Below, piece by piece: positions 12,472-15,411 of a DNA stretch of 35,461 bases. Every line of letters begins with the position of its first letter. Positions within the stretch are counted from its first letter, which is position 1. A model generated the notes under the pieces. It searched no databases. It saw only the letters and a list, made by a program, of their open reading frames with translations, and was not told the origin of the DNA. The position numbers were made by a program, and so were the translations under genes. The stretch comes from a virus (Duplodnaviria > Heunggongvirae > Uroviricota > Caudoviricetes). The stretch lies in the IMG/VR virus record IMGVR_UViG_2778261527_000008. One strand, written 5' to 3'.

Positions 12472-12516
12472 TAACCAACGGGGGCGCAATGCCCCCAATT
12501 AATTAAAGGTGATTAA

Positions 12517-14523
12517 ATGCTTAAATTTCGCCGCGATCTTAACGGTTACGGTGGAGTTATTAATGAAGGGCATAACGATCAATACGAATTTGAAATTGCT
12601 TTCTCAAGTACACAGCCTTATCAGCGCCAATTTTGGGATGAGCAAAATCAAGAAATGGTGGTATTAGATGAAATTCTGGTACATACACCGGAAGCGGTTG
12701 ATCTGTCTCGTCTGAATAATAACGCTCCGTTGCTGTTCAATCACAATTTCGATAATCACATTGGTGTAGTTTGTAACGCTCGAATCGATGCGGATAACGT
12801 AGGTCGTGCTCTGGTTAAGTTCTCCAAGCATGGGACTTTGGCTAATGATATTCGTAATAAAGTCATTGAAGGTACGATGGAAAAAATTTCTGTCGGCTAT
12901 GACATTAAAGAATATCACATCGATTATGCCAAAGGACAATTGATTGTTACTAAGTGGGCACCCTATGAACTCTCATTTGTCACCGTTCCCGCAGACGATA
13001 CGGTCGGTTTAAATCGCTCTCTAAATACTATCACAGTTAATTTGGAGGCTAAACGCGATATGACTAAAGAACAAATTGAAGAAATCAAAGAAGAACAAGA
13101 ATCCGCTCAGGTTGAAGAAACTCCGGTAGAAGAAAATAAAGAATCGGAAGTAGAAGAAACTCAAGAGCGCCAAGTTGAAGAGAATAAAGAAGATGAAAAT
13201 CTCGAAGACGGAAAAGACGCTGAACATCCTGAAAGTGTTGATGATGATAGTTCAACTGTTCGGGAAACAGAAGAAGTAAAAGAAGAACGTGAAGCCGCTC
13301 CGGTTGAAGAAGAAAAAATCGAAGAAGTGGCTGAACGTTCCGAAGAAGACGAATTAGAAATTCGCGAAATTGCACGCGAACTAAATATTGATGACGAAGA
13401 ATTGAAACGCGCATTGGCAATTAAAGATATGACGCCGGAAGCATTCCGCACTAAGGCACTAAATAACATTACCAATGCTCAACGTATTAACGAACAACAA
13501 ATTAAGGACTCTAAAATGGAAAAAACTTTTGACCTGAACAACGTAATTCGCTCTCTGGTAGATGGTGAAGCTCTGGGTGCTAACGAAGCCGAGTTTTCTG
13601 CAATGGCTGCTACTACAACTATGCAGCGTGGTCGTGCCGCTCGTGGTGGCTCTGTATTCGTTCCGGCTGCTGCTATGCGTGCTGCTGCTGATGGCAACAC
13701 CAAAGCTAATCTGGTTGCTATCACTGACGAAAAACTGATGACTGAATCCTACATCGAAATGCTGATGCCTCAGAGTGTTTTAGGCCGCCTCGGGGTGACT
13801 GTTTATAGTGGCTTGACTTCTCCGACCGCTATTCCAAAAATGACTAAATCCAGCGTTGACGCTTTCGGATTCGTTGACGAAAATGGCGCTGCCCCCGAGT
13901 CACATGCGGAATTTTCGAACGTGAAACTGTCTCCGAAAACTTTTGCTGGTGGCAACCCGATCAGCCGTCAGTCGCTGAAAACCGTTCCGGGCATCGCTAC
14001 CCTGATCACCGATCACATTAACAAATCTGTTCGGATCAAACTGGAACAACTGATTCTGTCTGATAAAGAAAATGCTCGTGGTCCGGCTGGTCTGGTTAAG
14101 CAACTGGTAGACGCTAGCCGCGTTACCAAGAAAGCTGCTTTCTCTTATAAAGACTTCCTGAAAGAAATTGCAGCACTGACTGACGCTGGCGTTCCTGCTC
14201 AGGCGATCAAGTTTGCGATGAGCGGTGCAACTGCTGCTGAACTGGAATCTACCCTGAAAGATAACGGCGTTTCCGGTTATATCATCGAAAACGGCAAACT
14301 GGCTGGTTACGAAGTAGTTACTTCTGGCGTTATTCCGGCAGACCACATCGTTCTGGGTGACTTCTCCGGTATTACTATCGGTGAGTGGGGCGGTCTGGAA
14401 CTGGATATGGATCTAACTACATACCGTGATCGTGGTGCGGTAGTGCCTCGTATCTTTGTAGATTTGGACTACGTTGTAGCACAGCCGGAAGCTCTGAAAG
14501 TTCTTCACATCTCCGCTGAATGA
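12517..14523 (+). CDS. prohead protease (HK97 gp4/S78-like) - acidic scaffold-like linker - major capsid protein (HK97 fold) fusion
   Basis: N-terminal ~170 aa with protease-like SVGY/ELSFVTVPA motifs; ~110-aa Glu-rich linker; C-terminal ~340 aa capsid-like; single uninterrupted ORF. Confidence 0.7.
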   Translation: MLKFRRDLNGYGGVINEGHNDQYEFEIAFSSTQPYQRQFWDEQNQEMVVLDEILVHTPEAVDLSRLNNNAPLLFNHNFDNHIGVVCNARIDADNVGRALVKFSKHGTLANDIRNKVIEGTMEKISVGYDIKEYHIDYAKGQLIVTKWAPYELSFVTVPADDTVGLNRSLNTITVNLEAKRDMTKEQIEEIKEEQESAQVEETPVEENKESEVEETQERQVEENKEDENLEDGKDAEHPESVDDDSSTVRETEEVKEEREAAPVEEEKIEEVAERSEEDELEIREIARELNIDDEELKRALAIKDMTPEAFRTKALNNITNAQRINEQQIKDSKMEKTFDLNNVIRSLVDGEALGANEAEFSAMAATTTMQRGRAARGGSVFVPAAAMRAAADGNTKANLVAITDEKLMTESYIEMLMPQSVLGRLGVTVYSGLTSPTAIPKMTKSSVDAFGFVDENGAAPESHAEFSNVKLSPKTFAGGNPISRQSLKTVPGIATLITDHINKSVRIKLEQLILSDKENARGPAGLVKQLVDASRVTKKAAFSYKDFLKEIAALTDAGVPAQAIKFAMSGATAAELESTLKDNGVSGYIIENGKLAGYEVVTSGVIPADHIVLGDFSGITIGEWGGLELDMDLTTYRDRGAVVPRIFVDLDYVVAQPEALKVLHISAE

Positions 14524-14649
14524 ACTCCTGTAGAACCATCTGAACCTTCCCCCGATTTGGGGGAAGAAAATCTGATTCCTGAACCGGAAGAAGAATCCCA
14601 GACGGTTAAGGCGAAAGCCACAGCTAAAAAACAGCGTAAAACTAAAGAA
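14524..14649 (+). other. in-frame post-UGA extension of the capsid ORF (42 codons), candidate readthrough isoform
   Basis: no stop in frame from 14524 to TAA TAA at 14650-14655; no start codon or RBS; encodes TPVEPSEPSPDLGEENLIPEPEEESQTVKAKATAKKQRKTKE. Confidence 0.4.
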
Positions 14650-14657
14650 TAATAATT

Positions 14658-14684
14658 AGCCCTGCCTAACGGTGGGGCTTTTTT
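14658..14684 (+). terminator. rho-independent terminator after capsid gene
   Basis: agccctgcc-taac-ggtggggct followed by tttttt. Confidence 0.6.
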
Positions 14685-14714
14685 GTATGTAAATACTCCA
14701 TAAAGGGGGTAACT

Positions 14715-15005
14715 ATGTTCAAATTATCAGAATCACAATTAAATCGAATGTTTAAAAGTGCTCCTGTATTTTCGGTGGAAGGTGGTAAATCAATTCGTGC
14801 TTATCATGAAATTACTACTACCGACGAATCGGGGGTAATGACAGAAACAGAATTTCTATTCTGTCGTGAGGGAGACTTAAAGCAAGGTGATATTGTCACA
14901 GTAGAAAACCAGCGTTTCAAAGTTCAATACGTTAAGCGCAATGGTGACAATACTTGTGATTGCTTTATCACTTTAGCAGGGGGTACACATGCTCGCTACC
15001 GTTAA
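14715..15005 (+). CDS. head-tail adaptor / head completion protein (candidate)
   Basis: 96-aa ORF directly after capsid gene, AGGGGG RBS; synteny only. Confidence 0.4.
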   Translation: MFKLSESQLNRMFKSAPVFSVEGGKSIRAYHEITTTDESGVMTETEFLFCREGDLKQGDIVTVENQRFKVQYVKRNGDNTCDCFITLAGGTHARYR

Positions 15006-15411
15006 TAATATGCCGAGACTGAAAATCAAACGCGCCTTGCAAGATATTATCGAACAAGATTTAGGTCTGGCTTTAAACGTAGAACAAACTCAGCAAGGCT
15101 TTAGTGATGACGTGGTTTGTTGGATTACTGGCATGAATGAGACTTACACAAGGGTCCGTGGCGGTAATGCAATGCAAGCTGAATGCGTTATCGAAATGCA
15201 GTTATATTCTCAGATTCATGAAACGAAAATTCATGAGGGTATTTGCCAGATAATCCAGATTCAGCCAGATAACCCACGATTTAAAGATTTGGGCTTCTCT
15301 ATTTCAGATATCACTCCAGTAGCTTCTAATACCGATTATGACGATGATTCTAGTGATGGGGGTATCGTTGGGACACTTAGCCTTAAATTTTCTTATCTAG
15401 CGCGTTTTTAA
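14989..15411 (+). CDS. head-tail joining or tail completion protein (candidate)
   Basis: 140-aa ORF overlapping previous stop by 17 nt; synteny only. Confidence 0.35.
   Translation: MLATVNNMPRLKIKRALQDIIEQDLGLALNVEQTQQGFSDDVVCWITGMNETYTRVRGGNAMQAECVIEMQLYSQIHETKIHEGICQIIQIQPDNPRFKDLGFSISDITPVASNTDYDDDSSDGGIVGTLSLKFSYLARF

Follow-up and report, generated by a model that had tools for sequence, protein, structure and literature searches.

The virus record IMGVR_UViG_2778261527_000008 is a stretch of DNA of 35,461 nt, and this whole stretch is referred to here as the window. On its + strand, at 12517..14523, a single open reading frame (ORF) encodes a protein of 668 residues in which a prohead protease, a tether, a pro-region, and a major capsid protein (MCP) follow one another. 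The fusion of protease and capsid protein is in itself ordinary and already annotated. We propose, with a probability of about 0.6, that the gene is a nested gene set with a leaky stop codon, and not the source of a single polyprotein that supplies protease and capsid protein in a 1:1 ratio. The proposal is built on features read from the DNA: two in-frame ATG codons with Shine-Dalgarno (SD) motifs, a step in codon adaptation, and an open frame conserved behind the stop codon.

The window is a lambda-like Escherichia coli prophage, as judged from its E. coli carriers, the gene context, the gpA-type terminase, and the portal, which is of the lambda type.

Putative internal initiation sites

The first ATG of the ORF, which would start the long product, has an SD-like sequence, AAGGTGAT, at 12506..12513 (+), 3 nt upstream. 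The first-pass annotation of this DNA stated that the ORF holds no internal start signal. This statement is contradicted by two further in-frame ATG codons, Met182 and Met334, which are both preceded by SD motifs.

The site at Met182 occupies 13044..13062 (+). Its GGAGG motif (13044-13048) is separated by 11 nt from the ATG at 13060, and the product would be a protein of 487 residues and 53 kDa. The motif makes use of codon 177, GAG, which is one of seven GAG codons against 70 GAA codons in the ORF. Three protease alleles are found in E. coli, and their border peptides differ (NLEAKRDM, VLEGEQV, and VDGEKNV). GGAG(G), a spacing of 8-11 nt, and an ATG or GTG codon are retained in all three. The site was also searched for in 75 non-identical, diverse relatives, where an SD was counted if its duplex with ACCUCCUUA had an energy of -5 kcal/mol or below. 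An in-frame SD with ATG or GTG is located 15-75 codons past the WxPxExS motif in 56/75 of these loci, against 15/75 and 0/75 in the control frames (in-frame versus +1 frame, Fisher p = 2e-11). The matches are concentrated in position: 37 of them fall in one 20-codon bin, 40-60 codons past the motif. For comparison, the fullest bin of annotated starts contains 35, and the other internal bins contain 3-21. A comparable SD and start are present in roseophage R4C at Met189.

The site at Met334 occupies 13504..13518 (+), with AAGGA at 13504-13508, a spacing of 7 nt, and the ATG at 13516. The product would have 335 residues and a mass of 35 kDa. This arrangement is kept in 23/23 close loci that carry this allele, and the peptide overlapping the SD differs between close loci (QIKDSK or INKEQI). 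A 37%-identical allele (loci L001 and L005) has its own AAGGA, 9 nt, and ATG, eight codons upstream of the Met334 position. In the window, the SD uses codon 330, AAG, which is one of eight AAG codons against 33 AAA codons in the ORF.

Stand-alone relatives, some of which could be truncated gene calls, are consistent with internal initiation. Those of 345-349 residues start 10-19 residues ahead of the motif equivalent to Met334, and those of 400-445 residues start just ahead of the helical module of the fusion protein, which they contain. It should be added that distant relatives with a protease-MCP fusion have neither a second SD and ATG of the Met334 type nor a TGA codon with an in-frame tail.

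Codon adaptation along the gene

The codon adaptation index (CAI) was calculated with the E. coli relative-adaptiveness weights of Sharp & Li 1987, leaving out Glu, Lys, Asp, Met, and Trp. In the window it is 0.25 for the protease (residues 1-181), 0.25 for the tether and helical module (182-333), 0.70 for the pro-region (334-398), and 0.55 for the capsid fold (399-668). The corresponding four values are 0.26, 0.27, 0.64, and 0.62 in L005; 0.20, 0.27, 0.71, and 0.72 in L003; 0.24, 0.49, 0.63, and 0.66 in L014; and 0.32, 0.59, 0.61, and 0.58 in L015 (phage Bas97). When all codons are counted, the other prophage genes have values of 0.27-0.38, and the segments of the fusion gene have values of 0.30, 0.43, and 0.61.

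The change point of the CAI in the window is at codon 332 (support 317-342). It is at codon 344 in L003, 353 in L005, 204 in L014 (support 182-228), and 226 in L015 (support 220-241), with a permutation p<0.0005 in each of the five loci. In the window, L003, and L005, the step coincides with the Met334-type ATG of the respective locus. In L014, a 43% relative, and in L015, it is found just past the post-protease ATG (Met180 and Met217, respectively). The gene is a mosaic: behind a joint at ~13069, the tether and capsid part is the same for three different protease alleles. The step is away from this joint and also from the predicted mature N-terminus at ~398. The best-adapted segment is 334-398, the part that is predicted to be discarded. 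The simplest reading of these values is that the 3' part is translated far more than the protease part, which in turn points to internal initiation. An internal promoter was considered as the cause of the presumed high expression of the 3' part and was rejected: four consensus matches were found against 4.0 expected, and none is located just upstream of Met334.

The open frame beyond the stop codon

The ORF ends with the TGA codon at 14521-14523. The frame remains open behind it for 42 sense codons, TPVEPSEPSPDLGEENLIPEPEEESQTVKAKATAKKQRKTKE, which are followed by TAATAA; this putative readthrough extension occupies 14524..14655 (+). If the UGA were read as Trp, the junction peptide would be ISAE-W-TPVEPSEPSPDLGEE. 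A GC-rich hairpin, CUUCCCCC-GAUUU-GGGGGAAG, is located at 14546..14566 (+), 22 nt past the UGA, in a region with a z-score of -4.9. An intrinsic terminator with a 9-bp stem and a T-run, at 14658..14685 (+), ends the capsid transcript.

TGA-A and an open in-frame tail were found in 31/32 E. coli-lineage loci; 11 metagenome contigs and the 37%-identical capsid allele are among these loci. The readthrough tail mentioned in the first-pass annotation is thus upheld as a conserved open frame. The tails fall into length classes of 27, 28, 33, 35, 42, 43, and 44 codons, have no internal stops, and always end with TAATAA, whereas the other two frames after the TGA are full of stops in the same loci. 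At least six changes of tail length are all multiples of three, and the chance of this is ~0.001 by a rough estimate. The N-parts of the tails vary between alternatives, as do their basic ends (QRKTKE, VGRPPKAK, RGRKPKE, and ERKTKAK). The composition is kept, with an acidic and Pro-containing part followed by a Lys/Arg end, whereas the sequence is not. The unrelated 28-codon extension class has a different hairpin, of 11 bp, 10 nt past the UGA. Both sequence classes have a strong hairpin 10-22 nt past the UGA.

The tail was seen only in the E. coli lineage, and readthrough as a property of the whole family was rejected: among broader relatives, the stop codon is TAA in 60/72 and there is no extension. 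A 41%-identical relative, L111 (UMJI01079478.1), has a TAA codon followed by an in-frame Lys/Arg-rich stretch, EKQKQKRKRKLKLL..., which is reminiscent of the basic tail.

Other explanations of the open frame were considered. A separate small gene in the tail was rejected: the extension classes have no conserved start codon in common, and the minus strand of the intergenic stretch 14524-14714, where the tail lies, has no ORF of at least 50 aa. Selenocysteine insertion or another known RNA element was also rejected: no Rfam family matched at the UGA at the gathering score, and no selenocysteine insertion sequence (SECIS) was detected even at E up to 10. In the whole window there was no Rfam match at gathering thresholds. 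The window encodes no suppressor tRNA; the sole call by ARAGORN is an odd 91-nt tRNA-Glu within a coding gene. A UGA codon followed by A is reportedly leaky in E. coli. In the literature searched, no example of a capsid extension by stop-codon readthrough was found for a double-stranded DNA (dsDNA) phage. To our knowledge, the tail, if real, would be the first conserved extension of this kind described in such a phage. It would add a recoding mechanism to dsDNA phages and would also provide, on the surface of the capsid, a natural site for display at low copy number.

Proposed expression and alternative explanations

The following scheme is suggested by the sites described above. Initiation at the first ATG would give a 74-kDa protein containing the protease, tether, and capsid. 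Internal initiation at Met182 and, mainly in this lineage, at Met334 would give the 53-kDa and 35-kDa capsid precursors, which are free of the protease. These short forms would outnumber the long form, as the codon-adaptation step implies. Since the capsid domain is common to all forms, the long and short forms might co-assemble into the procapsid. A few long copies would bring the protease into the interior of the shell on a disordered acidic tether of ~100 residues. There, the protease, with His76 and Ser125, would trim all subunits, itself included, on the N-terminal side of ~Asn398, leaving the 29-kDa mature shell protein. A few ribosomes would pass the leaky UGA-A, presumably with tRNA-Trp, so that some subunits would have a 43-residue acidic-then-basic tail. 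The fullest version of this scheme is that one gene gives four or more primary products by two internal starts and programmed UGA readthrough, the protease being carried in the manner of Gag-Pol by a minority of subunits and the basic C-terminal tail also by a minority. This version is held only tentatively, at somewhat below even odds. If internal starts set the ratio of protease to capsid protein, many "protease/MCP fusion" genes in databases would be nested gene sets, and their products and stoichiometries would be mis-described.

Several observations weigh against nested expression with a leaky stop. A good SD also precedes the first ATG, and the long form may therefore not be rare. The first internal SD is GGGGG instead of GGAGG in two close loci. 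The Met334 product would be without the family-conserved helical module (276-333), and its ability to assemble alone is therefore uncertain. The support intervals of L014 and L015 open 2-3 codons past their ATGs. As for the tail, the variable sites at the three codon positions of the extension number 7, 11, and 13, which means a weak constraint at the amino-acid level, as expected for a low-complexity appendage. Locus L001 has no access to the extension; one A is lost from an A6 run relative to L116. This one-base loss explains the "frameshifted" tail of L001, which was accordingly dismissed as evidence against readthrough. Finally, phage P2 gpO is described as made only in full-length form in the background text of a preprint (bioRxiv 10.64898/2026.09.13.751334).

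The last of these points, together with the good SD of the first ATG, would also favor the model of the first-pass annotation, in which the protease is co-incorporated 1:1 because no internal start was assumed. In this model, only the 668-aa polyprotein is made, and autoproteolysis strips residues 1 to ~397 from every subunit. The uninterrupted ORF and the conservation of the fusion across phyla are in agreement with it. By our own estimate, the removable load of ~37 kDa per subunit is on the order of a P22-type scaffold load, and the model is physically feasible. However, if all ribosomes travelled from the first codon to the last, every part of the ORF should be under the same selection for efficient translation, whereas the CAI more than doubles at an internal ATG in four independent enterobacterial lineages. 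The model also leaves unexplained the SD and start right after the protease in the 56/75 relatives and the three E. coli alleles, and the use of rare synonymous codons in the internal SDs. In view of the conserved internal sites and the sharp step at Met334, 1:1 co-incorporation is probably wrong, and we consider it unlikely that the polyprotein is the only product. A different possibility is that the SD-like motifs are pause signals at domain borders, or arose by chance, and that the CAI step reflects mosaic ancestry or selection for accuracy. The protease alleles are indeed swapped at ~13069, and a structural domain could be under stronger selection for accuracy. The step, however, is neither at the mosaic joint nor at ~398, and the most adapted segment is the one discarded. 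The 37%-identical allele also shows the step, at an SD and ATG of its own, and L014 and L015 show it shortly past a different SD and ATG. In addition, a pause signal would need no ATG at SD spacing. This combination of causes seems improbable.

The chance that separate protease and capsid genes were joined by an assembly or sequencing error is close to nil. No observation in favor of such an error was found. Dozens of complete genomes and metagenome contigs, obtained independently, contain the same ORF of 662-672 aa, and more than 100 near-identical proteins of 665-671 aa are encoded in independent assemblies of E. coli, Shigella, and Salmonella. The gene region was found in 52/5426 complete E. 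coli genomes at a nucleotide identity of 86-96%, invariably between the portal gene and the small head-tail genes. Furthermore, nearly all of the best 80 of 196 relatives have one open frame of ~560-840 aa with a protease motif and a capsid domain. An artefact was rejected on these comparative data, which already refute it, and the fusion recorded in the first-pass annotation is real.

Domain structure of the fusion protein

Both domains expected from the first-pass annotation are present in the single frame. Peptidase_S78 (PF04586) matches residues 40-162 with 41.3 bits (cutoff 21), and Phage_capsid (PF05065) matches residues 410-664 with 91 bits (cutoff 24.2). The protease part also matches phrog_80, "head maturation protease" (E 4e-12). 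Its score against the NCBIfam equivalog TIGR01543 is 35.9 bits, under the cutoff of 59. The protease is an S78 homologue, and not an equivalog by NCBI's threshold.

An AlphaFold2 model of the full fusion protein was built on 99 relatives (mean predicted local distance difference test score, pLDDT, 82). The prohead serine protease domain, residues 21-165 (12577..13011, +), as delimited by Pfam, phrog_80, conservation, and the model, is beta-rich and confident, with a pLDDT of about 90-98; modelled alone, it has a pLDDT of 84. The top PDB matches of the isolated model in Foldseek were the pseudorabies virus and Epstein-Barr virus proteases and T4 gp21, with a probability of 0.97-0.99, weak E values of 0.008-0.02, and a template-modelling (TM) score of ~0.4. 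His76 (12742-12744, +) is invariant and Ser125 (12889-12891, +) is at least 90% conserved among 99 relatives, and both are invariant across 25 protease domains. These two are the putative catalytic residues. We take them to be the counterparts of His65 and Ser114 in HK97 gp4; the spacing is 49 residues in both proteins.

The acidic tether, residues 182-275 (13060..13341, +), is 36% Glu and has a net charge of -29. Disorder (pLDDT<50) is predicted at 168-179 and 196-269, with a short helix at 184-195 in between. Confident helices follow at 276-288, 293-301, 307-337, 340-349, 355-370, and 384-391. The helical module, residues 276-337 (13342..13527, +), has a pLDDT of 85-97 and is conserved across the family: in five distant relatives, its columns I282, A299, T306, F310, and N317 do not vary. 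The region had been described as one Glu-rich linker. The acidic stretch is there, but it is not a single linker, since the disordered tether is accompanied by a confident helical region.

The short helical pro-region, residues 334-397 (13516..13707, +), is predicted from the model and the R4C alignment to be cleaved off. The HK97 fold, 410-668, comes after a low-confidence stretch at 394-409. The capsid part matched the PDB chain 8gta_A in phmmer (E 2.7e-25). Its model matched 8gta in Foldseek (E 2.9e-19) and HK97 Head II (2ft1) with a TMt of 0.71. A capsid domain spanning 330-668 had been proposed before; the domain is confirmed, whereas its start is to be moved, as the HK97 fold begins at ~398-410.

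The gene of roseophage R4C encodes a fusion of 629 aa, whose C-terminal 268 aa (362-629) correspond exactly to the capsid chain deposited as PDB 8GTA. This means that the entire N-terminal part is absent from the one solved virion considered here from the family. R4C is the closest solved relative, and the earlier claim that the N-terminal part of the precursor is removed is in line with it. Alignment to the R4C chain places the mature N-terminus near Asn398, where the cleavage presumably occurs. The predicted mature HK97-fold MCP, residues ~398-668 (13708..14520, +), would have 271 aa and a mass of 29 kDa.

The fusion gene is interrupted by IS903B in NZ_OW848980.1 (H51) and by IS1A in NZ_CP195866.1 (H56). 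In the latter, PGAP calls an "HK97 family phage prohead protease" and a "phage major capsid protein".

Distribution and comparison with known systems

The fused layout, which the first-pass annotation set apart from lambda and HK97, is not unusual, as is seen from the PHROG 4523 and NF045541 models and from published annotations (PMC8508860, PMC8601537). Both halves of the protein match the profile phrog_617 ("major head protein", 626 positions; E 1e-38 and 2e-47), and the match to phrog_4523 ("major head and protease protein") is limited to the N-terminal half (E 1e-35). The match to NCBIfam NF045541, "prohead protease/major capsid protein fusion protein", has 127.7 bits, under the cutoff of 525, and covers residues 22-345 only. 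The protein shares the architecture of NF045541 and is outside that specific family. A two-domain match was also found in 92 phage records. In a scan of one genome per bacterial species, 196 relatives were confirmed and the best 80 loci were kept; the hosts of these 80 range from Proteobacteria to Verrucomicrobia and Planctomycetes. Among the 150 best 50%-identity cluster representatives matching residues 270-668, ~110 have the fused size.

The element itself is known only in prophage form. No DNA match of the region to deposited phages was obtained by megablast against 50,697 phage records, and the best protein match among deposited phages has 43% identity at most. In some relatives, a further gene, of 340 aa, separates the portal gene from the capsid gene (L003/L004 851-1873). 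A lambda-like module of terminase, portal, and fusion capsid occupies the left end of L014 (PQ671644.1, "Escherichia phage DCP80"), a 141-kb record classified in Straboviridae; the record is probably a chimera into which an induced prophage was assembled.

Catalogued fusions include PHROG 617/4523, NF045541, R4C gp6 (8GTA), the Jilinvirus phages (ep3, Bas97, and PT1), VP882/phiHAP-1, the Rhodobacter RcC-cluster phages, and the SEA-PHAGES "major capsid and protease fusion protein". The architecture is described in published notes (PMC8601537) and in SEA-PHAGES announcements. The catalogued fusions and the present gene share an S78 protease, a variable spacer, a helical pro-region, and an HK97-fold capsid in one ORF beside the portal gene. 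The present lineage differs from them in its expanded acidic tether, the second SD and ATG at Met334, and the TGA with an in-frame tail. For phage MD8, it was explicitly proposed that the protease, scaffold, and MCP are one gene (PMC8508860). The MD8 gp5 protease was modelled on ClpP, with an HHpred match to the protease region of lambda gpC, whereas the protease here matches S78. Internal starts and readthrough are not discussed in that paper. Protease-capsid fusions are not addressed in the papers on the Stx2 phage Sp5 and on the R4C structure.

HK97 gp4 and gp5 belong to the same protease family and capsid fold, and the HK97 protease removes an N-terminal helical pro-domain from the MCP (PMC10275583). 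In HK97 these are two genes, whereas here they are fused, and the protease would therefore be targeted by a covalent link and not by binding to a delta domain. In lambda C/Nu3, herpes simplex virus 1 UL26/UL26.5, and gp17/gp17.5 of the archaeal virus HFTV1, an in-frame internal start gives an abundant short assembly protein and a rarer long form bearing the protease (bioRxiv 10.64898/2026.09.13.751334). For the nested lambda C/Nu3 pair, Shaw & Murialdo 1980 is cited in a passage of PMC8508860. The C-terminal part shared by the two products is the scaffold in systems of the lambda C/Nu3 type, whereas here it would be the capsid protein, in a nesting deduced from the sequence. In Q-beta coat/A1 (UGA readthrough) and in T7/T3 10A/10B, A2, and the Listeria phages PSA/A118 (frameshift), a minority of capsid subunits is extended by recoding (PMC7026636, PMC5009743). 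Q-beta, however, is a single-stranded RNA phage, and the dsDNA-phage examples found use frameshifting; the tail here has 27-44 residues and is of low complexity. Engelberg-Kulka 1981, on the leakiness of UGA followed by A in E. coli, is cited by title in PMC10570021.

Neighbouring features

A GC-rich hairpin, CGGGGGCGCAATGCCCCCA, is located at 12479-12497, between the portal stop codon and the ribosome-binding site of the capsid gene. It has no T-run on the + strand and may act as an RNA processing or stability element. The 91-nt tRNA-Glu(UUC) called by ARAGORN is at 15176-15266 (-), inside the + strand ORF 14989-15411, and is probably a false positive, since Rfam was null at the gathering threshold. 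Downstream of the capsid gene, two genes of 96 and 140 aa (14715-15411) overlap by 17 nt and have no PHROG or NCBIfam match. The gene that follows these two encodes a protein of 277 aa with a weak match to a major tail protein family.

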